DNA of 64,000 nt, taken from the IMG/VR virus record IMGVR_UViG_2703718772_000011; one strand, given 5' to 3'. Below the pieces are notes generated by a model. It worked only from the letters and a program-made list of their open reading frames with translations, did not search any database and had not been told where the DNA came from. This document shows, piece after piece, positions 1,798-51,223 of the stretch. The position numbers and the translations under genes were made by a program. The DNA comes from a virus. Its lineage: Duplodnaviria > Heunggongvirae > Uroviricota > Caudoviricetes. How positions within the stretch are numbered: the stretch's first letter is position 1; each line of letters begins with the position of its first letter.

Positions 1798-2391
1798 CTA
1801 AGCAGCCTTCTTTGATGGTCTTTTTTTCCTGATCACATTCGCAGGATCATACCCTCCCAGACTTTTCATGACGTCCAAAGGGATCTTGCTTATAGAGTGC
1901 CCAGCGTCCTGACAGAATCCTCGAAAAACAACGAGCATACTGCCACCTGGGTTGATGTTTACTTCTACCTGACCCAGATTGACGTCAGGCTCGACAAACG
2001 CTACGCGGCCACCAGACAGAATAATCGTCTCATTCGCACACTCTGTTGCACGCTCATACCACTTTGTATCTAGGGATTGAGGAATTAGCATCACTGTTGT
2101 AACTCCGCGAGCCTGCTCACGTATAGCCGCATCAATCCAGGGGGAGATTTTGGAGTAGGGGGGATTGAGGAAGGCAATTGTACCTGGCTGTCCCCATTCA
2201 GATTTCAAAGCATCACGCTCAACGCCTATGAAATTAGGCAGCTTTGCATTGTCCTTGTTGCAGGCAACGTCAACATCAAATGTCACCCCAAGATAACGTT
2301 GAATGGCAGAAAACAGCCAGTCAGGTGTTCTCCAGAGGTCACGAAGAGAGTTGTCGCGCTTTCGCTGTTTGATTTTTTCGGCTGCAATCAT
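1798..2391 (-). CDS. dam: DNA N6-adenine methyltransferase (phage Dam-like)
   Basis: FLNPPYS catalytic NPPY motif; size and layout typical of phage Dam-family MTases. Confidence 0.8.
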   Translation of the reverse strand: MIAAEKIKQRKRDNSLRDLWRTPDWLFSAIQRYLGVTFDVDVACNKDNAKLPNFIGVERDALKSEWGQPGTIAFLNPPYSKISPWIDAAIREQARGVTTVMLIPQSLDTKWYERATECANETIILSGGRVAFVEPDVNLGQVEVNINPGGSMLVVFRGFCQDAGHSISKIPLDVMKSLGGYDPANVIRKKRPSKKAA

Positions 2392-2574: not shown

Positions 2575-3384
2575 TCATCCAATAGTGTACTCCGCGACAA
2601 ACTTCTTAACGATCGGTGATTCTTCGTTCAATGTTAGATTTCCACCGTCTCTAACGGCAATTCCTGTCGCTGGAAATACAGCCATCATTTGCCCAGCCTG
2701 AGTTGACGCAGTGTTAAGCGGATACGGTTTTTCTGGATTGCTCATTAAAGCAATCTTAATACTATTACTTGTAGCCTTCTTTTCTGTGAGAAGGTGTCTC
2801 ATGGAAATTACCGTGTAAACACTAATATCTGGACCTCCGCTAAACCAATTAAGAAGGTTTAATATCTTATCCTTTGCTTTGACAGGCGCGTTATCGTAAG
2901 CGTCTAAGAAAATATCTTTTTCTAAGCCCGCTTTATTGAAAAACGAATCATCTTTATCACTTAAAGTAAAACGAGGACCTCTTGCAGTACGAGCTTTTTT
3001 ATTTGTATTGCTATCATTTGACTGTTGAACTTTTAATTCATCATTAACCTCAACACACTCTTCAACCTCAATAAATCCCAATTGTTCTGGCTCGTTTTCG
3101 GCAGCTTCAACACTTTCAGCGTTAATTACGTTTATAGGCTCATGCGCTAACTCCAACTCATTTAAAGCAGAGCTGAAATCACCTGCTTTTTCTTCATTGA
3201 ACAGTTCTTCGGCAACATCATCAGAACTCATGGCTACGCCAGCATCTAGGCCGAGCTGCAGATCGTCAATATCATCAGTATTTTCAACCTGTGCAGCTTT
3301 TTTTACTGGTTCATCAAGTGATTGCAACATGGCTGTCAGCTCGTCCAGATCATCATTTGTCATTACATTTTCAACCGAACTCAT
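2575..3384 (-). CDS. acidic hypothetical protein (269 aa)
   Basis: Long ORF with strongly acidic N-terminal half (D/E-rich); function unknown. Confidence 0.6.
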   Translation of the reverse strand: MSSVENVMTNDDLDELTAMLQSLDEPVKKAAQVENTDDIDDLQLGLDAGVAMSSDDVAEELFNEEKAGDFSSALNELELAHEPINVINAESVEAAENEPEQLGFIEVEECVEVNDELKVQQSNDSNTNKKARTARGPRFTLSDKDDSFFNKAGLEKDIFLDAYDNAPVKAKDKILNLLNWFSGGPDISVYTVISMRHLLTEKKATSNSIKIALMSNPEKPYPLNTASTQAGQMMAVFPATGIAVRDGGNLTLNEESPIVKKFVAEYTIG

Positions 3385-3542
3385 GTAAGTCTCCTTCTGT
3401 TTGGTTACATTTGCGTTTCGATGGCTACATTTTGACTAAACCTATCAGGCGGAAAAGTATTAAATACAGGCAGGAAATGATTGAAAGGCGACTGTTCTTT
3501 AAAAGAAAGCCTACTTTAAACTTTTTAAAGTAGGCTTTTGTT

Positions 3543-4100
3543 TTACACAATTTCAGAGGGTAATTTAAAAAATCCGTACTTATTACGTGCCTTAAAGAAG
3601 CATTGCATCATTAAGTTTGTGTCATATAAGGCACTATGTGCTTTGGCATGATCGTATATAAAGCCAAGAGAGAAGGCCAACTCTTCAAGGCGGGGACGTT
3701 TACCGTCTTCTGTGGCCCACAATCCCGATAACATAGTATCTATAACAGGAACTTCTGGCAGTCTTACTCCATACCCTGAAAACTCGTGTCGAATAAATGG
3801 TATATCAAATGCTTCGCCGTTATGAGCAACCCACACACTACATGCCCCCATATAAGCGCCAATTTCGCTGGCATGATTTGACAACAAAGGTTCAGCTGCG
3901 AGCTGTTCCAATGAAATGCCATGAACGGCTTGAGCTTTCGGATCTATGTTTCTGCGAGGGTTAAAACGCATCTCCAGACTATCAATATGTCTCTGTGTCT
4001 CCAGTTCATAGCGGGTAATTGCGATTTCAATAATTTTATGACCAGCAAGGAAATCCAGTCCCGTAGACTCGATATCGATGCCTGCAACAATCGTTGTCAT
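3543..4100 (-). CDS. DEDDh 3'-5' exonuclease (DnaQ/epsilon-like)
   Basis: Exo I motif GIDIESTGL, later H-x4-D (HSALYD); DnaQ-like fold expected. Confidence 0.8.
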   Translation of the reverse strand: MTTIVAGIDIESTGLDFLAGHKIIEIAITRYELETQRHIDSLEMRFNPRRNIDPKAQAVHGISLEQLAAEPLLSNHASEIGAYMGACSVWVAHNGEAFDIPFIRHEFSGYGVRLPEVPVIDTMLSGLWATEDGKRPRLEELAFSLGFIYDHAKAHSALYDTNLMMQCFFKARNKYGFFKLPSEIV

Positions 4101-16774: not shown

Positions 16775-17419
16775 TTACAGCGCGTCAGTGGGCTTTTTAC
16801 GCGCTGCATTTATGCTTATGACGCCAGCTTTAGGACGTGGATCGACAAGGTTCAGTTCTTCTTCGCTATGGTATTCAAGGTCGAACTCACGTTTTACATG
16901 TCTGATGTAGATTGCAGTGAGCAGGCTATCTTTGGTCAGGAAGTGTCCGTAGGATTTGCGGATCACTTCTTCAACCTTCTCGATTTTCTCACCACCCATG
17001 CAGAGGTGATTAAACCGGCTGTGTTTCCGCAACATCTCGTCAACTGGGCCTGAGTAAACCTTGTCTACTTTCCCAAAACGAATGATTTTTCCTGTATCTG
17101 CGGATACAAGGCAAATCAGTTTGTCTGGTGATAAACGATCTCGCCACGTTACTCCTGAACGGAGTGTGTTGAAGTAGGGCGCATCCAATCCGATGATCGG
17201 TTTACGAAATGCGAGCAATGGAACGTACCTGATACAACTATTCAAATGAAAGTTCACACCAGCCTTATCAAGTTTAATTCTGGTTTCGTAGATCGGGCAC
17301 TTCGCCGCTATACCGCAGATATCACAAAGTAACTTCTGCTTATTCAGGTTGGAATTTGATTCGATAGTGTAGGAGCCGTCCTCAAGACGACGAACCCAGC
17401 GCGTGCGTTTTAGATCCAT
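16775..17419 (-). CDS. hypothetical Cys-containing protein (214 aa)
   Basis: ORF; CDICG...C cluster; no confident family. Confidence 0.5.
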   Translation of the reverse strand: MDLKRTRWVRRLEDGSYTIESNSNLNKQKLLCDICGIAAKCPIYETRIKLDKAGVNFHLNSCIRYVPLLAFRKPIIGLDAPYFNTLRSGVTWRDRLSPDKLICLVSADTGKIIRFGKVDKVYSGPVDEMLRKHSRFNHLCMGGEKIEKVEEVIRKSYGHFLTKDSLLTAIYIRHVKREFDLEYHSEEELNLVDPRPKAGVISINAARKKPTDAL

Positions 17420-17520
17420 AATCGTTTTTTCAGTAGTTATTGGCCGATGCTACGATAACTCATTAGGCATACCTTAATCTGCATTTGCCTGTTTTACTTA
17501 TCCCAGTTATCCACTGGATA

Positions 17521-17578
17521 GATCCAAATAAGAGATCCCAAGTAAGATCAAATAGAAGATCCAAAGAGATCCCCGATC
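17521..17578. promoter_or_regulatory. cluster of six GATC sites in about 12-bp AGATCC(A) repeats
   Basis: GATC at 17521, 17534, 17546, 17558, 17568, 17575; resembles Dam-methylatable heptamer repeats of P1 oriR. Confidence 0.6.
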
Positions 17579-17617
17579 GCCTCTAGCCGTTGCGGTTACT
17601 GGTCTGAAAGGGTGTTG

Positions 17618-17725
17618 CCATCCACTATGGAGAGCAAAGAAACCTCTGTAGAGAGCTGAATAACCGCTATGAAGAGTAAAACAACCACTCTGGAGAGCTG
17701 TATATATCCACTGTAGAGAGTAGAG
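17618..17725 (+). repeat. iteron array A: five direct repeats (consensus aaCCACTATAGAGAGc) at 21-22 bp period
   Basis: Repeats at 17621, 17643, 17663, 17685, 17707. Confidence 0.8.
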
Positions 17726-17879
17726 CACATTGTCTTTTATGGATAACTTAATGACTTAATTCTTCATTAACATACTGATATACATAGATATATTTTAAAC
17801 TCTACTCTTAGTCATGATTCTTATGTCCTTAAATATCCACAGAAGAGTAGAGTTACCTGTTCTTGAAATCCTCTGATTT

Positions 17880-17888
17880 TTATCCACA
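17880..17888 (+). promoter_or_regulatory. consensus DnaA box TTATCCACA
   Basis: Exact 9-mer; one-mismatch copy ATATCCACA at 17833..17841; inside AT-rich segment 17730..17880 followed by GATC sites at 17894, 17908, 17949, 17994. Confidence 0.55.
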
Positions 17889-18000
17889 GGCCCGATCCAG
17901 TAATTCAGATCACAAAGAGAACCAAAGAGACCCATAAAGACCCAATAAGATCCCCGCCCACCTCAAACCGTTGTGCCATCTGCCTTCAGACATGATCGAT

Positions 18001-18122
18001 ATCCACTATAGAGAGCGAATAATCCACTATAGGGAGCAAAGCAACCACTATAGAGAGGAGAAAAACCACTATAGACGGTAGGATAACCGCTGTGATGAGT
18101 GCTACTATCCACTGTAATCAGC
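18001..18122 (+). repeat. iteron array B: six direct repeats immediately upstream of the rep gene
   Basis: atccactatagagagc-type units at 18001, 18022, 18043, 18064, 18085, 18107. Confidence 0.8.
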
Positions 18123-18162
18123 AAAGGCCACCAAAGCCGTCGAATAACAAGAGACATTTGGA

Positions 18163-19218
18163 ATGAGCGAAAACGGCAATAAAAACATAGCGATCGTTGA
18201 AGCATTTTCAGAAACAGATAAAAAGACAGGCGAAGTTGTTACGTTGGTTCCTAACACTAATAACACTGTTCAGCCTGTTGCTTTGATGCGTCTGGGCCTC
18301 TTCGTTCCGACGCTGAAATCGACATCCAGAGGAAGAAAGGGGCAAATGGTCTCTATGGATGCCTCTGCTGAACTCAAACAGCTGTCTCTGGCAAAAGCCG
18401 AAGGGTACGAAGACATAAGGATCTCTGGCCTTCGGCTTGATATGGATAACGACTTTAAAACGTGGGTGGGAATAATCCACGCGTTTGCCAAACACAAGGT
18501 TGTTGGCGATACTGTCACGTTGCCGTTCGTTGAGTTTGTAAGGCTGTGTGGCATTCCGACCGCCAGGTCATCAGCGAAGTTACGCAAACGCCTGGACAGT
18601 TCGCTAAGCCGTATTGCCACAAATACCATCTCGTTCCGTAGCAAAGGCTCTGATGAGTTTTACGTAACGCATCTTGTGCAAACGGCAAAATATAGTGTCA
18701 AGCACGATACGGTCGAACTGAAAGCAGATCCCAAGATTTTCGAACTCTACCAGTTCGACAAAAAGGTTCTTCTGCAACTCCGGGCTATAAACGAACTCTC
18801 AAGAAAAGAATCCGCTCAGGCGCTTTATACTTTTATTGAAAGTTTGCCGCCTGATCCGGCACCAATATCACTAGCCCGTTTACGCGCCAGACTTAATCTG
18901 ACAAGTCGCACTATTACTCAGAATGCGACGGTAAGAAAGGCTATGGAACAGCTGCGAGAGATAGGATATCTCGATTACACGGAAGTTAAGCGCGGAAACT
19001 CGGTCTACTTCGTCATCCACTATAGGCGGCCAAAGTTACGCCAGGCACAAATATCAACAAAAATCGATAATGATGAGACGGAATATAGCCTCCCAGATGA
19101 GAATCAAGATGACATTATCGACGTTGTGCCTGACGAAAAAGAAGGCAAAATGGTCATGTTGAGTAAAGAAGAACTGGCGCTTCTCGAAGAGTTGCGCAAG
19201 GCAAAGACTCGCAAATAG
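18163..19218 (+). CDS. repA: iteron-binding replication initiator (RepA-like)
   Basis: Only plus-strand gene in this region, flanked on both sides by iteron arrays with origin-like elements upstream; P1 oriR-repA-incA-like layout. Assignment by context. Confidence 0.6.
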
Positions 19219-19219
19219 C

Positions 19220-19703
19220 CCAACCACTGTAGTTAGTAGTAAGGCTCACTATCCACTGTAGTGAGCCTTACTTATATCTGTAATTCGCTATCCACTATAG
19301 TGAGTATCGTTATCTGTTGATAACCACTGTAGGCAGTAGAATGCAAATACTGAATTAAATGTTAGTGATCACTAACACTGATGAAACAAGGGCTGCGAGG
19401 TTAGTGGTCACTGGGTATCTTGGAAAATTTACTGTCTATAGTGGTTGTTGTCGCCCTCATCTTTGAGCGTATCCACTGTGGCGAGTGGATATCCACTGAA
19501 AACAGCAAAGGCTTACTCACCATAGTGGATACCCGCTGGACATCTCACTCCAATACTCACCATAGTGGTTGTTTGATGCGAATGAAAGGCTGTCTACTCG
19601 CTACAGTGGTTAGCAGATATGTAGGAAGGTTTTGTTACTGACTACAGTGGATAATGAGCTGGATACGAATGCGGTGAGCAGACTACTCACCGCAGTGGTT
19701 GGT
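19220..19703. repeat. iteron array C: about 12 CCACTRTAG-type iterons in both orientations downstream of the rep gene
   Basis: Direct copies near 19225-19335 and inverted copies (CTAYAGTGG) near 19432-19703. Confidence 0.75.
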
Positions 19704-19707
19704 GCTA

Positions 19708-19920
19708 TTAGTGTATTTTCTTCAACAGACCCCAAAGTGTTCCGGCTTTTGTAGTCAGTTTTCCTGTTTCTGGATCGTACATACGCCATTCACGCCGCTG
19801 GTGGACGATATACCCATCTTCACGTTCCAGACGCTCAAGAATGCCAGGCTGCTTGAAACCCTTAGCACGCCAGTAGCCGCTTGTTTTCTCGATTTCCAGA
19901 CCTGCCAGTGTTAATGCCAT
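19708..19920 (-). CDS. hypothetical protein (70 aa)
   Basis: Small ORF, start overlaps the stop of the upstream gene. Confidence 0.4.
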   Translation of the reverse strand: MALTLAGLEIEKTSGYWRAKGFKQPGILERLEREDGYIVHQRREWRMYDPETGKLTTKAGTLWGLLKKIH

Positions 19921-22445: not shown

Positions 22446-24785
22446 TTACTCTTCTACTGACTCGGTGGGGTTGTCTTTTGCTCTTCGGTCGTCGATTGCC
22501 TGCAAAGCCGCAATGATTTCAGCCAGTGGCTTCTCCCGATACATCTCGACGATCTGCGATTTGGTGTATTTCTTGTCACCAATTTCAACTCGCCCGCTGG
22601 CGTTCTTTGGCAGGTATCCTTCTTCCAGCATGTACTCGACGAGCGATTCGATAACGTCGAGGCCACGAGTAGGATCGAAGTAGAATTTCCAGGTGCATTT
22701 GCCATACGGTGGTGCAACTTTGTTTTTGATGCATTCTGCGCCTACGTCCTGGCCGATCTTCTCTTTACCATCCTTCATCACCGATGCACCAAGACGGATA
22801 CGTACAGAAGCGTAGAACTTCGGTGAATCTCCACCTGGCGACGTAGTAGGGTCGCCAAACATTACACCGATTTTTGTGCGAACCTGATTCAAGAAGATGA
22901 TGCAGGCGTTGTATTTGCGTGCCCACAAAGCCAGAGTAGGGAAGTTCGCACTCGTCGCACGAGCCAGTGCCGTATTGTCGTTCATGTTTAGCTGATCTTT
23001 GTCTTTGGCAGTGCCTTCAGCCATCTTTTCGAACTTCTCGGCTTTGGAGTTCGGAACCATAGACGCAAGAGAGTCAGCCACGATACAGATTGGTGCTGAT
23101 TCGGGGATAAGCTCTTCATCACGAACCAATTTAAGTATTGTGCCGATCAACTCTACAGAGTCTTCGAAGGTATCTGGCTGCTTGTATACCCACTGACCGT
23201 CATCCTCATCTGCGTTCAGGCCATTGGCTACAGCCAGGCCAACGTCAAAACTGTTTTCATGATCGAGGAATACCGCCAGACCATCTTGTTTTTGAGCGGA
23301 GATCATCGCTGCTGTTGCAAGGAATGTGTTGTGGCTGATAATCCCGTTAGACCAGAAAGAGTGTGTTTCCGGCATCGCTACGTCGAACGTTGGCGCTTCA
23401 CCTTCCTCAATAGCCACGACTTCGTCGTAGAACAAGTTAGAGCCAATTACCGCTGCCAGTTGTGCAAACAGATGCTCGTTAAAACGATTCTTTCTGCCAA
23501 TGAAGGAGACATAGATTTCTCGCAGTTTGTCTATTCCGACACGATCGCCGCGGCCAATAACGTGGTCTACCAGAGCGTAGTCTTCACGGGTGGTCTTGGT
23601 GAGCGACTCGTAGAGTGATTTCACTAAGCCGCTGATGTGCGGAACATAGCCTGAGTAAGTGCGGTCAAAACCAATGTCCCGTTTGGTTGCCACTGATAAA
23701 CGTGCCGGAGATTCGAAACCAATCGTTGACAGAAAAAGGTCGTAATTAGAGCCACTGAATGACAGCCGGTAATATGTATTTTCATAACCCGCGACGTGTT
23801 TTTCAGAGATAGTTGACGTAATCCCCAGATTCAGGAGCATGAGGCGAATTTGCTGTAGCAGCAGCCCACTCGCGCTCACAACCTCAATGCAGCGACCATC
23901 ATTGACGTGGCATTCCAGCTCAAAGTAGCCGCGAAGGAATGCAATTTGAGCCTCGCTATTGGCGCGACGCACACTCAACGGAACCTGCTTGCCAGCAGCT
24001 TTCTCATACTCCAGACCATATTCTTTAAAAAGCAGCGAACGCACCTCTTTGCTAAACAGCACATGGTCTTCCGAGCCGTTATGTTTTCTCGTAACTGGCA
24101 TCTTGTCTGATACCAGCGAAATGAGGCGGTAGTACTCATCCTTGATGAAAGGATCTGTGTTAGAAAAATTCACTGAATTTTCAGAGGCCACGTATCCGTC
24201 AGCAATTAAATAGCCCATCAGTTTTGCGATATTGGCATCCAGGTGCTGATCGCCGAATTGATGTGTGCCAACCATTGAAGGAATCGTGTCGCCTACACTG
24301 ATTTTTTCAGCATGTCGCCAGACGACATTACCTAAGTCGTCAACCACACGGATTGGGTGACGGAACGTAGCCTCGATATAACCGCCTGATGCCAGCTTAA
24401 TACGCTTGAATTTGCGACGGTTGTTCCATGTCAGGTGTGAGGTCTTCTCTATCACGCCATTTTCATTGATGAGTCCAACGTTATGCTCTACATCGCGAGT
24501 AGTGCATGTCGCTTTGTACCCTTCAATCTCAAACAACTCTTTCACTGTTACCATTCCACGCTCCGTCAGCAGCATGGTGTCTGCGGTAACACATTTCCCC
24601 GCACTTGGAGGACCGAATACTTCGACGATACGACCACATGGGAAGCCGCCATCGTAACGACCAGAAATAGCTTTGTTTAACGGTGGAAAGCCTGTATCAA
24701 TCCAATGAGTTACTTTCTGAATTTCGTCGTTGCTACCGATTTTCTTTTTCAGAGCAAGTGCCAGTGCGGATTTTCCTTTTGCCAT
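22446..24785 (-). CDS. recA: RecA-family recombinase interrupted by an intein
   Basis: Exteins (about 357 aa) align with E. coli RecA (GRIVEVFGPPSAGK / TFLATAAMISAQ..., IIFLNQVRTKIGVMFGDPTTSPGGDSPKFYASVRIRLG). A 422-aa insert splits the Walker A loop. Confidence 0.85.
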   Translation of the reverse strand: MAKGKSALALALKKKIGSNDEIQKVTHWIDTGFPPLNKAISGRYDGGFPCGRIVEVFGPPSAGKCVTADTMLLTERGMVTVKELFEIEGYKATCTTRDVEHNVGLINENGVIEKTSHLTWNNRRKFKRIKLASGGYIEATFRHPIRVVDDLGNVVWRHAEKISVGDTIPSMVGTHQFGDQHLDANIAKLMGYLIADGYVASENSVNFSNTDPFIKDEYYRLISLVSDKMPVTRKHNGSEDHVLFSKEVRSLLFKEYGLEYEKAAGKQVPLSVRRANSEAQIAFLRGYFELECHVNDGRCIEVVSASGLLLQQIRLMLLNLGITSTISEKHVAGYENTYYRLSFSGSNYDLFLSTIGFESPARLSVATKRDIGFDRTYSGYVPHISGLVKSLYESLTKTTREDYALVDHVIGRGDRVGIDKLREIYVSFIGRKNRFNEHLFAQLAAVIGSNLFYDEVVAIEEGEAPTFDVAMPETHSFWSNGIISHNTFLATAAMISAQKQDGLAVFLDHENSFDVGLAVANGLNADEDDGQWVYKQPDTFEDSVELIGTILKLVRDEELIPESAPICIVADSLASMVPNSKAEKFEKMAEGTAKDKDQLNMNDNTALARATSANFPTLALWARKYNACIIFLNQVRTKIGVMFGDPTTSPGGDSPKFYASVRIRLGASVMKDGKEKIGQDVGAECIKNKVAPPYGKCTWKFYFDPTRGLDVIESLVEYMLEEGYLPKNASGRVEIGDKKYTKSQIVEMYREKPLAEIIAALQAIDDRRAKDNPTESVEE
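23328..24593 (-). mobile_element. intein with LAGLIDADG homing-endonuclease domain inside recA P-loop
   Basis: Starts with Cys right after GPPSAGK, ends His-Asn followed by Thr (+1); internal KLMGYLIADGYV and FLRGYFELECHVNDG blocks. Confidence 0.8.
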
Positions 24786-49078: not shown

Positions 49079-49438
49079 TTAACCTTTCTTCATCAACTCT
49101 CGTTTGATTTCATCGGTACGCATCGTGACATCGGCAGCGGTGATCGCCTCATTCAATTTCACGATGTCCTCGATTTCCTGCGGTGACTTCTCTGCCAGAT
49201 GGAAAATGGCTGCTCGAATCACGTCAGAACGAGTGAACTTCTCGAAGCGAGGGATGAACTTCATCATCTCCAGCAGTTCGAAGTATTCGTCCTCCAGTGA
49301 CATTGTGCGGCTTTTAATTTTCTCTTTGCCACGAGTCGGGCGTCCCTGTGGTCTGACTGGTTGGCGCAAAGGAGTTGTGTTCTTAGCCGGTGCATCAGGC
49401 TCTTTGCGCTTTGCTAGGTCACCCATTTTCATGGACAT
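49079..49438 (-). CDS. putative partition adaptor / centromere-binding protein (ParG/ParB-like)
   Basis: Small basic protein immediately downstream of parA; assignment by context only. Confidence 0.4.
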   Translation of the reverse strand: MSMKMGDLAKRKEPDAPAKNTTPLRQPVRPQGRPTRGKEKIKSRTMSLEDEYFELLEMMKFIPRFEKFTRSDVIRAAIFHLAEKSPQEIEDIVKLNEAITAADVTMRTDEIKRELMKKG

Positions 49439-50106
49439 TATTCTTCTTCCTCCAGACTCAACAGATAATCTACAAATTCTTCAAACTCGGCTTCCGCCTT
49501 CTTGTCGCGTTCGCTACCGGTCATTTCAAAGATAGAACGACCTGACTCTTCCGCATCATCGTAGACGTTGCGGTTATATAGATTGACTGGCGCAGACTCG
49601 ATGCCGAACGTCTCGACAATCTCTTTAGCCGCCAGAATGCGAGACACTTGTGATGGCAAAGCCGGGCACTGGTTCATGACCGCGCGGACCTTCACTTTAT
49701 CGTTTACATTGCGAACATTGTCGATAATAGGATCGATGTCACGTAAAGATTTCAAATCACGACGCTTAGGACGCAGCGGGATAATGATAACGTCAGCCAT
49801 CAGCATCGCTTGTCGCTGAATTTCGGAGTCGAAGCCACCAGCATCTACCACTACAAACTCAGCTCTACCCTGAAGCGATTTTAGGTGCTTAATGATGTCA
49901 TCCTGAACGTATGCAAAAGGAATCAGCTCAAGGTCTTCGTTCTGTCGACGGTCTTCACACCAGCTCGTTGTCGTGCGCTGAATATCTATATCGGTAATAT
50001 AAACCTTCTTCTTCTTTTTGACTTTCAGGCAAACGGCAATTTGCTGGGCAACGGTGGATTTGCCAGGCCCGCCCTTTGTGCCGCCAACCACAAAGATCTT
50101 GGTCAT
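49438..50106 (-). CDS. parA: ParA/ParF-type partition ATPase
   Basis: Deviant Walker A GGTKGGPGKST; 222 aa small ParA. Confidence 0.85.
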   Translation of the reverse strand: MTKIFVVGGTKGGPGKSTVAQQIAVCLKVKKKKKVYITDIDIQRTTTSWCEDRRQNEDLELIPFAYVQDDIIKHLKSLQGRAEFVVVDAGGFDSEIQRQAMLMADVIIIPLRPKRRDLKSLRDIDPIIDNVRNVNDKVKVRAVMNQCPALPSQVSRILAAKEIVETFGIESAPVNLYNRNVYDDAEESGRSIFEMTGSERDKKAEAEFEEFVDYLLSLEEEE

Positions 50107-50424
50107 TGGAGAGTTCCCTTTGCGTATATAATTATCGTCTGAAACAACTTGTTTTCTTATATGTGATATAGCCTAAATGCCTACGGCTGCGGTGTAAAGG
50201 TTAAATGGTAGGTTGTGATTAACAATTGGCAATCATAGCTTGTATTTGTCTGTTGAAAAAAGTAACAATGACCTCTATATTACAAGTACGGTGATATGCC
50301 GTACACAATTTGATAATGCACACGTAATGGGCTATAGCCTTTTAAAGTAATTTTTGAGTCGAAAACTCAGTTTGAACAGAGGAGATTGATGGCCTTCCTT
50401 CATCACGGCCATCAGGAGGAATAC

Positions 50425-50694
50425 ATGTCAGCACTAAAAAAGCAGCGCATCGATTTGAGATTAACCGATGACGATAAAAGCATCATCGAGGAAGCTGCCG
50501 CAATGTCTAACCAGAGCATTACTCAGTTTATGGTTAGCAGTGCATCTGAACGTGCCGTGAAAGTTATAGAGCAACACCGTAGACTAGTTCTGAATGAAGA
50601 ATCCTGGAATCTGGTTATGGACGCTATAAGCAATCCTCCGGCACCGAACGACAAGCTGAAACGAGCTGCTGATCGTCTGAAAAGCATGGAGTAG
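50425..50694 (+). CDS. DUF1778-type antitoxin (TacA/AtaR-like)
   Basis: Start at Met after AGGAGG RBS; RLTDDDKSIIEEAAAMSNQSITQFMVSSA...EQHRRLVL typical of antitoxins paired with GNAT toxins. Confidence 0.75.
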   Translation: MSALKKQRIDLRLTDDDKSIIEEAAAMSNQSITQFMVSSASERAVKVIEQHRRLVLNEESWNLVMDAISNPPAPNDKLKRAADRLKSME

Positions 50695-50701
50695 TTTACT
50701 C

Positions 50702-51223
50702 GTGAGCAATACAACGATAGAGATTTTCTCTGGAGAGAAAGATTATGATCTAAACGGTTTTGATTGCGGCGAAGAGTCACTAAACGCCTTTTTAGCCAAC
50801 CACTTAAAAAGGCAGCATGAGGGAAAAATTCTTCGTGCTTATGTGCTTTGCACTCAAGAAGAAAGGCCAAAAGTGTTAGGATATTACACTTTGTCAGGTA
50901 GTTGTTTTGAAAAGGAGTCCTTACCTTCAAGAAGCAAACAAAAGAAGGTTCCTTATCGGAATGTTCCAAGTGTTACTTTGGGTAGGCTGGCTTTGGACAA
51001 GTCCCTTCAAGGTCAAGGATTTGGCTCAATGCTTGTAACACATGCAATGCGCGTTGTGTACAATGCATCTCTTGCTGTAGGCATTCATGGACTTTTCGTT
51101 GAGGCGTTAAATGACAAAGCCAAGGCGTTTTATAAAAGTTTAGGCTTTATCCAGCTGGTTGGTAACAACGAGCGTTCTTTGTTCTATCCTACAAAATCTA
51201 TCGAAAAATTGTTCGAAGAATAA
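50702..51223 (+). CDS. GNAT-family acetyltransferase toxin (TacT/AtaT-like)
   Basis: GTG start 8 nt after antitoxin stop; FDCG motif and GNAT core (QGQGFGSMLV). Confidence 0.75.
   Translation: MSNTTIEIFSGEKDYDLNGFDCGEESLNAFLANHLKRQHEGKILRAYVLCTQEERPKVLGYYTLSGSCFEKESLPSRSKQKKVPYRNVPSVTLGRLALDKSLQGQGFGSMLVTHAMRVVYNASLAVGIHGLFVEALNDKAKAFYKSLGFIQLVGNNERSLFYPTKSIEKLFEE

Follow-up and report, generated by a model that had tools for sequence, protein, structure and literature searches.

A probable P1/RepFIB-type replicon with a doubled origin module in an SSU5-like phage-plasmid

Within the stretch of DNA analysed here – 64,000 nucleotides in full, hereafter the window – a gene for a Rep_3-family initiator lies between iterons on both sides: two successive modules of DnaA boxes, GATC heptamers and direct iterons upstream, and an array of iterons in both orientations downstream. 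The iteron arrays, the DnaA box, the six GATC sites in 17521-17578 and the rep gene listed in a preliminary description of this DNA were all recovered where it had placed them. The features are as follows.

17498-17720: distal module as a whole, with 6 GATC sites and 5 iterons
17498-17515, plus strand: distal pair of DnaA boxes, the degenerate TTATCCCAG and then TTATCCACT, which is exactly the second P1 box
17519-17580: distal heptamer cluster, five AGATCNN plus CGATCG (6 Dam sites), homologous to P1 Dam sites 1-5
17581-17619: G+C-rich spacer from heptamers to iterons (GC 0.54), aligning with the P1, Klebsiella and F spacers
17620-17720, plus strand: distal iteron array, 5 direct iterons at 17620, 17641, 17662, 17683 and 17706 (spacing 21, 21, 21, 23)
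17725-17867: inter-module spacer, 29% GC (0.24-0.35), holding ATATCCACA at 17833-17841
17738-17746, minus strand: TTATCCATA, resembling a DnaA box, immediately right of the distal iterons
17880-18121: proximal module as a whole, with an exact DnaA box, 3 GATC and 3 degenerate heptamers, and 6 iterons
17880-17888, plus strand: proximal DnaA box, exact TTATCCACA, the only exact box in the window's replicon
17892-17955: proximal heptamer cluster, GATC at 17894, 17908 and 17949; degenerate AGAACC, AGACCC and AGACCC
18001-18121, plus strand: proximal iteron array, 6 direct iterons at 18001, 18022, 18043, 18064, 18085 and 18107 (spacing 21, 21, 21, 21, 22)
18163-19218, plus strand: repA, 351 aa, Rep_3-family initiator, ATG start
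19222-19700, both strands: incA-like control array of 12 iterons, those on the plus strand at 19222, 19251, 19290, 19322, 19471 and 19491
19432, 19516, 19556, 19597, 19638 and 19686, minus strand: the control iterons in the opposite orientation
19238-19272, plus strand: terminator-like hairpin 3' of repA, 15-bp stem, with iteron 19251 embedded
19361-19415: conserved non-iteron element within the control array, GTTAGTGATCACTAAC and GGTTAGTGGTCACTGGG

A profile search of the 351-residue protein against initiator families agrees with its proposed role. Both winged-helix domains (WH1 and WH2) of the Rep_3 initiators (PF01051 and PF21205) were detected, Rep3_N at 42.2 bits (cut-off 22.4; 1.3e-10) and Rep3_C at 22.6 bits (cut-off 21.1; 1.3e-4), each above its Pfam cut-off. 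The protein is 60% identical to the Rep of F RepFIB over 329 residues (E 5e-143), the acidic C-terminal tail included, and 49% identical to P1 RepA over 267 residues (E 5e-93); a tblastn search matched P1 and P7 at 1e-71. By sequence, the closest characterised relative is the RepFIB of F/P307/pO157. Identity rises to 91% with SSU5 and pMT1 and stands at 51% with the RepA of a Klebsiella SSU5-like plasmid, and the gene, which is intact, is labelled RepA in the Cyrano and plasmid records. A search of PDB sequences returned no relative at E<=1, and an NCBIfam scan gave chance-level matches only. The description of repA as the only plus-strand gene holds locally, over about 1-27.8 kb, but not window-wide: hicAB, a tacAT-like pair and a few others also lie on the plus strand.

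The proximal iteron array, which adjoins repA, is probably the repA operator, although the promoter assignment is one that we infer. TAGGAT at 18079-18084, between proximal iterons 4 and 5, is the same hexamer as the -10 of PrepA in the P1 annotation; no good -35 was seen near it and a consensus scan reported no promoter there. That scan, for sigma-70 promoters and terminators, produced 8 promoter-like sites against 4.2 expected, none of them conserved or convincingly placed for repA, and its best match (17767-17794) falls inside the non-conserved inter-module spacer.

Iterons are concentrated at this locus. When the motif AWCCACTRTAGWGAG was scanned over the window with up to 3 mismatches, 32 matches were found against 6.8 expected, a number reached by none of 100 shuffles; 25 of the 32 lie in 17509-19700, of which the one at 17509 represents a DnaA box and no iteron. 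The notion that iteron-like repeats occur genome-wide can be rejected, since outside the replicon there are only 7 weak matches (2-3 mismatches), about what chance would give. The six GATC sites in 17521-17578 form the densest cluster in the window, and just 0.1% of 20,000 random placements of the window's 273 GATC sites reach 6 within 58 bp. For DnaA boxes the window yields 19 matches at <=1 mismatch against 14.7 expected, and an exact box alone is not significant; the meaning of the box at 17880 stems from its homology with the P1 boxes and not from match statistics.

That homology extends over the whole DnaA/GATC/spacer block, which in nucleotide sequence is related to the oriR annotated in P1 and to the origins of F RepFIB, Klebsiella and Pantoea. 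Modules of this kind (oriR-left) were counted with an nhmmer profile, replacing regex heptamer counts, and both copies were found by it, the distal at E 7e-30 and the proximal at E 4e-22. In the window and its relatives the module runs directly into an iteron track with a period of 21-22 nt. The distal DnaA pair aligns with the annotated P1 DnaA site (positions 2128-2145 of the P1 record, L003) and scored as an 8/9 box match in the scan; relatives carry TTATTCACA at this position, and at the proximal one TTATACACA. All six GATC sites of the distal cluster are invariant across six lineages, as is the sequence TGGATAACT of the 17738-17746 site. Box-like sites to the right of the iterons also occur in P1 and in the Klebsiella replicon. 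Beyond the window's proximal iterons, on their right, the scan found no DnaA-like box, and the distal copy alone is flanked by such boxes at either end. The distal iteron array is comparable to P1 incC.

In the proximal module the heptamers show the same half-degenerate state in six of six lineages, and the three GATC heptamers are invariant. The second GATC cluster of the preliminary description stands as far as these three true heptamers (17894, 17908 and 17949) are concerned; the three others are degenerate, and there is one more GATC at 17994. The AT-rich segment that it reported is likewise present, at 29% GC over 17725-17867, but it is a feature of this lineage only – relatives have 40-44% GC here – and forms the least conserved block, for which reasons it was rejected as a conserved unwinding element.

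The anatomy of the downstream array matches incA. Its first iteron begins 4 bp past the repA stop codon and spacing is 20-48 bp, save for one 110-bp non-iteron gap; the earlier estimate of about 12 iterons in both orientations proved accurate (12 in 19222-19700, 6 plus and 6 minus), and P1 incA holds 3 + 6 iterons in the two orientations. The array is kept in relatives, with the number of iterons shifting by whole units. By analogy it is predicted to act in copy-number control. In FIB replicons the downstream iterons alone displace a plasmid, and the upstream iterons are associated with the origin (PMC11983097). Two further elements lie within the array. The hairpin at 19238-19272 has a predicted RNA fold of -29.5 kcal/mol (z -5.0), and relatives keep its stem, in which pMT1 and E. 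ludwigii show a G-U-compatible change; the conserved non-iteron palindrome may bring in a further regulator. An Rfam scan of 17300-19900 found no match and so lends no support to a known antisense or regulatory RNA, and GC skew over the window, which tracks transcription direction with no switch at the origin, was uninformative.

RepA is predicted to bind all three arrays, in which case the iterons would be expected to co-evolve with the initiator. A Pantoea plasmid (L012) is instructive: all three of its arrays carry one lineage-specific variant (..TAGCGAG) of the window's iteron, which suggests that they are bound by the same protein, as expected under such co-evolution.

Escherichia phage Cyrano (pLF82) is 99.9% identical to the window over the whole query and SSU5 83% identical. 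Circular plasmids from E. coli and E. albertii, about 107 kb in size, match it at 100% identity and have IncFIB as their sole typed replicon (MOB-suite). The annotation of the window includes tail, lysis, RecA, ribonucleotide reductase, Pol III and cobalamin-synthesis genes in an SSU5/pHCM2/Cyrano-like order, as in an SSU5-like phage-plasmid. The accessory functions suggested beforehand are also there: a Dam-like methylase, the ORF at 1798-2391 on the minus strand (Pfam PF05869 'Dam' methyltransferase, 2.5e-38); ParA, an ATPase at 49438-50106 on the minus strand; and a toxin-antitoxin module, the TacA/GNAT pair at 50386-51223. The proposed extrachromosomal plasmid lifestyle is borne out by Cyrano, which persists as a plasmid with some 5.5 copies in each cell and also forms virions (PMC9928086), and by the identical circular plasmids typed as IncFIB only. 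A copy number of 5.5 is above expectation for a tightly handcuffed P1-type replicon. Replicons of the SSU5 group are IncFIB by typing (PMC7969092; bioRxiv 10.1101/2025.09.12.675607).

Our data thus point to 17498-19700 as the replicon that serves the plasmid prophage of an SSU5-like phage-plasmid, a P1/RepFIB-type theta replicon under iteron control in which oriR is doubled and the two copies appear to divide the labour; we place the probability of this reading at roughly 0.85. It is conceivable that the repeats and repA are instead a decayed or silent remnant and that the element is maintained by integration or by phage replication genes: among its genes are those for an integrase, helicase, primase and Pol III alpha subunit, and F's own FIB replicon is partially defective (PMC11983097). 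Yet repA is intact and strongly conserved (91% to SSU5 and pMT1), all arrays are conserved, hundreds of circular plasmids have this as their sole typed replicon, and Cyrano is extrachromosomal. We consider a remnant highly improbable.

The replicon is already known, and its design is the ordinary IncFIB/P1-type one with a single less familiar trait, the doubled origin module. Direct comparison with the annotated P1 record upheld the oriR-repA-incA layout that the preliminary description had proposed. The initiator is homologous; the tandem DnaA boxes, the five or six GATC heptamers and the G+C-rich spacer are alike in nucleotides; five iterons follow at 21-bp phasing; the control array has a direct and an inverted set of iterons; and P1, too, is a phage living as a low-copy plasmid. 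There are also differences. The iteron here is ATCCACTATAGAGAG and that of P1 GATGTGTGCTGGAGGGAAA; the two are unrelated, and specificity and incompatibility differ as a consequence. P1 has one origin module against two here, and 9 control iterons against 12; the RepA described here is longer by 27 residues at the N-terminus and by about 58 at the C-terminus; the par locus adjoins incA in P1 but lies some 30 kb off in this element; and P1 has a myovirus backbone whereas the present one is that of an SSU5-like siphovirus. Judged by its components the replicon works like P1, yet it falls outside IncY, given that the iterons differ and that identical plasmids are typed IncFIB.

RepFIB is itself a P1-type replicon. 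In F/P307/pO157 rep likewise lies between upstream origin-associated and downstream control iterons (PMC11983097), a homologous DnaA-box/GATC-heptamer block stands upstream, and the typing label, IncFIB, is the same. RepFIB of F differs in having only one DnaA/GATC module (-378 to -260), after which come irregularly spaced iterons (B, C, D, D', D'') of other sequence, and in a rep start codon that is CTG where ours is ATG; no 21-nt periodic track was detected upstream of F RepFIB rep. Upstream of rep, F RepFIB has repeats (e.g. ATAAGCTGTGGCA) unlike the iterons of the window, so that the two replicons do not share the iterons on which incompatibility would turn, and cross-incompatibility with F/P307 RepFIB is unlikely.

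SSU5, pHCM2 and pMT1 carry the same replicon: RepA is 91% identical, identity over the 716 bp upstream, both modules included, is about 81%, and the downstream array has been kept. They depart from it in details, in that the inter-module spacer is AT-rich in the window's lineage only and their distal DnaA boxes are off by 1-3 bases; SSU5, pMT1 and other relatives have up to three more whole downstream iteron units than the window's 12. The Klebsiella pKpn-type elements (e.g. pF138_1) share phage backbone and gene neighbourhood, and their left half matches the distal copy of the window at 82% identity, but they have a single origin module, as in P1, and unrelated iterons, TATGCTGTCAGCGGT. More distant are mini-F ori2/RepE/incC and V. 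cholerae Chr2 ori2/RctB, which resemble the present system in their iteron-bound initiator, autorepression and handcuffing (PMC6090056; PMC11983097). These are analogues only, no close sequence kinship having been seen. Initiation at Chr2 is Dam-dependent and its origin is sequestered by SeqA (PMC6090056; PMC11983097), although its Dam sites lie within the iterons and not in separate heptamers.

By homology with P1 and RepFIB, the replicon can be expected to operate as follows. RepA monomers would bind the 21-bp-phased iterons upstream of repA and, together with host DnaA at the flanking boxes, would open the adjacent GATC-heptamer region. This region would need Dam methylation for initiation and, hemimethylated after replication, would be open to sequestration by SeqA. 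RepA on the repA-proximal iterons would repress its own promoter, and the 12 downstream iterons would titrate RepA and handcuff the origin iterons, resulting in low copy number and incompatibility. Host Dam would suffice for methylation of the origin. In Y. pestis pMT1, whose origin is 81% identical, the origin GATC sites are outside the four under-methylated loci (PMC13321490), which argues that they are methylated in vivo. A clade-specific division may be superimposed on this scheme, in which the distal module – with DnaA boxes at both ends, 6 GATC sites that do not vary, and 5 iterons – would be the methylation-dependent core, and the proximal module – with one DnaA box, half-decayed heptamers and 6 iterons by repA – would serve as operator and pairing array.

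The history of the two modules bears on this suggestion. Of 80 related loci, about half have the oriR module in tandem (from the SSU5/pHCM2/pMT1 group, Rahnella, Erwinia and Pantoea); P1, F RepFIB and the Klebsiella relatives lack the doubling. Orthology links the copies across lineages – the nearest neighbour is of the same copy type in 24 of 26 cases – and the duplication persists over Escherichia, Salmonella, Yersinia, Rahnella, Erwinia and Pantoea; the sequence comparisons thus indicate that the doubling is old. Among 44 double-module loci the distal copy has 5-6 GATC sites in all but one (L060, where the decay pattern is the opposite), and the proximal copy 3-5. The proximal left half is lost, and its iteron track kept, in three loci (L048, L059 and L067), and is partial in another two (L064 and L066). 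Conservation between plasmids is 0.68 for the distal against 0.62 for the proximal copy, and when the window's two copies are compared with the single modules of P1, Klebsiella and the Pantoea LPP-like replicons, the distal one scores higher (0.67-0.71) than the proximal one (0.49-0.62). It is these deeper comparisons that favour the distal copy in a division of labour, for within the close SSU5/pHCM2/pMT1 group the left halves are about equally conserved (0.90 vs 0.90). That the distal copy keeps its GATC sites while the proximal decays leads us to infer that the distal is the Dam-dependent origin core, and the proximal mainly the repA operator and an extra pairing array.

The same data can be read the other way, with the proximal module (17880-18121) as the active origin and the distal one as an accessory incompatibility or titration locus, or an initiation enhancer. 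The proximal module does hold the sole exact DnaA box (17880), sits where P1, Klebsiella and the Pantoea LPP-like replicons have their single oriR (-260 to -145 from the rep start), and has six well-phased iterons and three GATC heptamers invariant in six lineages, and in the close group its left half is conserved as well as the distal one. Its heptamers, however, are half degenerate in all close relatives and decayed further or gone in deeper ones, whereas the distal copy keeps 5-6 GATC sites in every double-module locus but one; conservation between plasmids is also lower for proximal copies, and that of the window resembles the single-module outgroups less and has no DnaA-like box right of its iterons. 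We therefore think this assignment unlikely.

A somewhat smaller chance attaches to both modules being functional origins, redundant or conditional. A GATC-poor proximal copy might, for example, escape SeqA or work in dam-deficient or heterologous hosts, and such a conditional origin, if real, would mean higher copy number or broader host range. DnaA boxes, heptamers and phased iterons are found in both copies, each with a clear oriR-left match (E 7e-30 and 4e-22), the duplication has persisted across genera with its copies orthologous (24/26 nearest neighbours), and the 5.5 copies of Cyrano exceed the unit copy of a P1-like replicon. But the latter estimate may include induced cells, and several lineages have progressively lost the proximal left half, which argues that its origin function is dispensable.

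Returning to the distal copy as origin core, we tentatively propose, at a little under even odds, that an old orthologous duplication has sub-functionalised, giving a three-array handcuffing circuit of distal origin, proximal operator and downstream array. The distal copy would then still be the site whose opening depends on Dam, SeqA and DnaA, and the proximal copy, with at least half of its methylatable heptamers lost, would be the repA operator and a third partner in pairing. To our knowledge such a circuit is undescribed for P1 or F RepFIB. We found no accessible description of the origin anatomy of SSU5-like replicons, though a prior mention of a doubled origin for pMT1 is possible.

The practical value of these findings is modest and current understanding of iteron replicons is unchanged. 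SSU5-like phage-plasmids are nevertheless common in clinical E. coli, Salmonella Typhi, Shigella and Klebsiella and increasingly carry resistance genes, the group includes pMT1, a virulence plasmid of Y. pestis, and the replicon itself serves typing (IncFIB). The base-level map gives exact targets for curing cassettes, the downstream iterons being the effective part in FIB replicons, and it explains how the label 'IncFIB' comes to span replicons with different iterons that are probably mutually compatible. Finally, proximal copies that range from intact to vanished provide a natural series in which the parts of a P1-type origin concerned with firing may be told from those concerned with control.

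The 351-aa product of repA, for which the preliminary description had suggested a profile search, proves to be a Rep initiator: it scores above the cut-offs for both Pfam Rep3_N (42.2 bits; cut-off 22.4) and Rep3_C (22.6 bits; cut-off 21.1), is 60% identical to the RepFIB Rep of plasmid F over 329 residues (E 5e-143), and 49% identical to P1 RepA over 267 residues (E 5e-93), the latter being matched also by tblastn. Relative to P1 RepA, the protein is extended at the N-terminus and ends in an acidic tail of ~58 residues; this tail (residues 294-351) is common to the F RepFIB Rep and lacking from P1 RepA, and gives a weak, sub-threshold Pfam match to T4_y05I_C. The annotated P1 record aligns with the locus, as expected from the original reading of the raw sequence as a P1-like oriR-repA-incA replicon, and we assign 17498-19700 to the P1/RepFIB type with high confidence. 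Its parts are as follows.

Features of the replicon
17498-17720: distal oriR copy (profile of the DnaA/heptamer/spacer block, E 7e-30)
17620-17720: distal iteron array, upstream of repA; 5 iterons, spacing 21, 21, 21, 23
17880: exact DnaA box, in the proximal copy
17880-18121: proximal oriR copy (same profile, E 4e-22)
18001-18121: proximal iteron array, upstream of repA; 6 iterons, spacing 21, 21, 21, 21, 22
18163-19218 (+): repA
19222-19700: downstream array; 12 iterons, 6 per orientation

The P1 record runs in the order oriR DnaA site, five Dam sites, five incC iterons containing PrepA, repA, and nine incA iterons (three direct, six inverted). Across the DnaA boxes and heptamers the distal block of the window aligns base for base with P1 (window, ACTTATCCCAGTTATCCACTGGATAGATCCAAATAAGAGATCCC...; P1, ACTTATCCACATTATCCACTGGATAGATCCAATAATCAGGTCC...), and homologues of this block can be recognised in F RepFIB, a Klebsiella SSU5-like phage-plasmid and a Pantoea plasmid. 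The iterons that follow it differ – ATCCACTATAGAGAG in the window, GATGTGTGCTGGAGGG in P1, TATGCTGTCAGCGGT in Klebsiella. The origin thus keeps its host-factor half across these replicons, whereas the half specific to the initiator has diverged as the initiator has. In the Klebsiella plasmid pF138_1 (L011) the deposited 'RepB family' CDS (2671-3888, 405 aa) starts inside the iteron array, so that its start is probably placed too far upstream; homology to RepA sets in near 2791.

The repeats are confined to the replicon locus: the motif AWCCACTRTAGWGAG, at up to three mismatches, has 32 matches in the window against 6.8 expected (0 of 100 shuffles reach 32), 25 of which lie within 17509-19700. 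Both upstream arrays, the dozen further iterons in mixed orientation and the exact DnaA box had been correctly recognised, as had the six GATC sites in 17521-17578, the densest such cluster of the window; when the window's 273 GATC sites are placed at random, 0.1% of placements give six within 58 bp. Other details stand in part. A second GATC cluster exists, but only three of its heptamers are true GATC heptamers and three are degenerate; the AT-rich segment is present (17725-17867), although as a lineage-specific feature; and repA is alone on the plus strand locally, but not over the window as a whole. Between 17620 and 19700, some half of the iterons start with (T)ATCCAC, which agrees with the DnaA box TTATCCACA at 7-8 of its 9 positions, so that the sequence spaces of DnaA and RepA sites overlap here. 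Sites scoring as DnaA boxes include 17833 and 19646.

The oriR module is single in P1, F RepFIB and the Klebsiella relative, whereas the window replicon has two in tandem. We scanned 1300 nt upstream of rep in 80 loci encoding RepA relatives, one genome per species; over these and ten reference replicons, two modules were found in 44 and one in 44, every module being followed directly by an iteron track of 21-22-nt period. Double modules occur in the clade with RepA at least ~67% identical to that of the window – SSU5/pHCM2/pMT1, Kluyvera, Buttiauxella, Rahnella, Erwinia and mid-size Pantoea plasmids – with the large Pantoea plasmids, F, Klebsiella and P1 as single-module outgroups. In 24 of 26 modules, the closest match in another lineage is of the same copy type: distal copies are orthologous with one another across lineages, as are proximal ones. 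From sequence comparison, a single old duplication is favoured over repeated events or gene conversion. We found no description of the doubled oriR, its age or the asymmetric decay of its copies in the literature, the 1998 pMT1 papers lying outside that search; the doubling is at most a variant of a well-known kind of replicon, and we claim no priority.

Given the replicon assignment, we put at roughly 0.6 the probability that the distal copy is the origin core, the proximal copy serving as operator and pairing array. The six distal GATC sites do not vary among six lineages, in all of which the proximal heptamers are likewise constant, three intact and three degenerate. GATC sites number 5-6 in the distal and 3-5 in the proximal copy of the double-module loci, the sole exception being locus L060, whose reverse decay pattern speaks for the proximal copy as the origin. 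The proximal left half (boxes, heptamers and spacer) is undetectable or partial in some lineages that keep the iteron track beside rep (L048, L059, L067), and is partial in L064 and L066; in the closest relatives, to the advantage of a proximal origin, both left halves are equally conserved. Conservation between plasmids is 0.68 for the distal and 0.62 for the proximal copy, and against the single modules of the outgroups the window copies reach 0.67-0.71 and 0.49-0.62, respectively. A conserved DnaA-like box beyond the iterons (17738-17746, invariant in six lineages) belongs to the distal copy only; the only exact DnaA box, however, is proximal, and it is the proximal copy that sits at the position of P1's origin. 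It is the weight of these opposing points that holds the distal origin to the figure given.

The downstream array resembles P1 incA in where it lies, in its mixed orientation and in its irregular spacing. Close relatives differ in it by whole iteron units, with up to three more than the window's 12 in SSU5, pMT1 and others, a pattern that suits a putative titration and pairing locus. In experiments on FIB replicons the upstream iterons are associated with the origin, and the downstream block alone displaces a plasmid, consistent with handcuffing (PMC11983097). Mid-array, at 19361-19415, lie two copies of a non-iteron motif, GTTAGTG-NN-CACT, one of them a perfect 16-bp palindrome with a central GATC. 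SSU5, pMT1, pHCM2, Kluyvera and Buttiauxella all carry its 29-nt core unchanged, and a similar sequence is found downstream of rep in Pantoea coffeiphila and in a Klebsiella replicon whose iterons are unrelated; P1 lacks the motif, and Rfam gave no match. The motif may be bound by a factor other than RepA.

Directly 3' of repA, a hairpin with a 15-bp stem and an embedded iteron (19238-19272, z -5.0) looks like the repA terminator. The repA promoter was not located: TAGGAT, the hexamer serving as -10 in the P1 annotation, is present between the fourth and fifth proximal iterons, but no good -35 element accompanies it. Within repA, an iteron-like site at 19015-19029 (ATCCACTATAGGCGG, 3 mismatches) encodes an I-H-Y-R-R motif conserved in F RepFIB Rep, and could be coincidence or an internal RepA site. 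Divergently transcribed from the origin is a conserved 214-aa ORF (16775-17419, minus strand), whose counterparts in SSU5, pHCM2, E. ludwigii, E. coli S56 and Klebsiella elements are placed alike; the Cyrano annotation names it an ASCH-domain protein, and it had no Pfam match in our analysis.

The stretch 17400-19800 matches Escherichia phage Cyrano (OV696614) from end to end at 99.9% identity; identity is 83% with Salmonella phage SSU5 and 100% with a series of circular plasmids (~107-126 kb) from E. coli and E. albertii, in one of which MOB-suite types IncFIB as the sole replicon. The adherent-invasive E. coli strain LF82 harbours Cyrano as the phage-plasmid pLF82, which is maintained as a plasmid at ~5.5 copies per cell and produces siphovirus particles (PMC9928086), in keeping with the extrachromosomal lifestyle originally proposed. 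IncFIB typing of SSU5-group elements has been reported (PMC7969092; bioRxiv 10.1101/2025.09.12.675607). The element, its repA and its Inc type are thus in public records and papers, and the replicon finding as stated was already known.

Over the window the Cyrano annotation lists tail and lysis genes, RecA, SbcCD, ribonucleotide reductase, Pol III alpha, helicase, primase, ParA, several toxin-antitoxin pairs (hicAB among its annotations), an adenine methyltransferase and a 'RepA replication initiation protein'. The predicted ParA is a small Walker-type protein (49438-50106, minus strand), and the predicted toxin-antitoxin module a TacA-antitoxin/GNAT-toxin pair (50386-51223); unlike in P1, the partition locus lies ~30 kb away from the replicon. 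Directly downstream of ParA, with a one-base overlap, is a 119-aa ORF (49079-49438, minus strand) annotated in Cyrano as 'RelE/ParE putative toxin' and without Pfam match; its position suggests a centromere-binding partner of ParA rather than a toxin. The RecA gene (22446-24785, minus strand, 779 aa; Pfam RecA 3e-36) is interrupted at the P-loop (GPPSAGKC...) by an intein (Intein_splicing 2e-11) with a LAGLIDADG homing endonuclease (LAGLIDADG_3 2e-17).

The mechanism of the P1 replicon is known from the work of Abeles, Austin, Chattoraj, Wickner and colleagues. The comparisons made here establish that the initiator and the left half of the origin are homologous to replicons characterised by experiment, and further the layout, phasing, conservation and unit-wise variation of the three iteron arrays and the element's plasmid state; the mechanism is inferred from what is known of P1 and RepFIB. 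By homology, RepA monomers would bind the iterons and DnaA the boxes, strands would open at the methylated heptamers, and SeqA would sequester hemimethylated origins; RepA would repress its own promoter, placed within the repA-proximal iterons, and the downstream array would titrate RepA and handcuff the origin. These steps draw on the P1 GenBank annotation, on that body of work and, for FIB, on PMC11983097. The Dam-like methylase of the preliminary description (1798-2391, minus strand) does fall in Pfam family PF05869 'Dam' (2.5e-38), its GATC specificity being putative; host Dam would be enough for methylation of the origin. Indirect evidence on methylation comes from Y. pestis, where the GATC sites of pMT1 are methylated except at four loci elsewhere (PMC13321490); the origin sites homologous to those here are thus modified by Dam in vivo.
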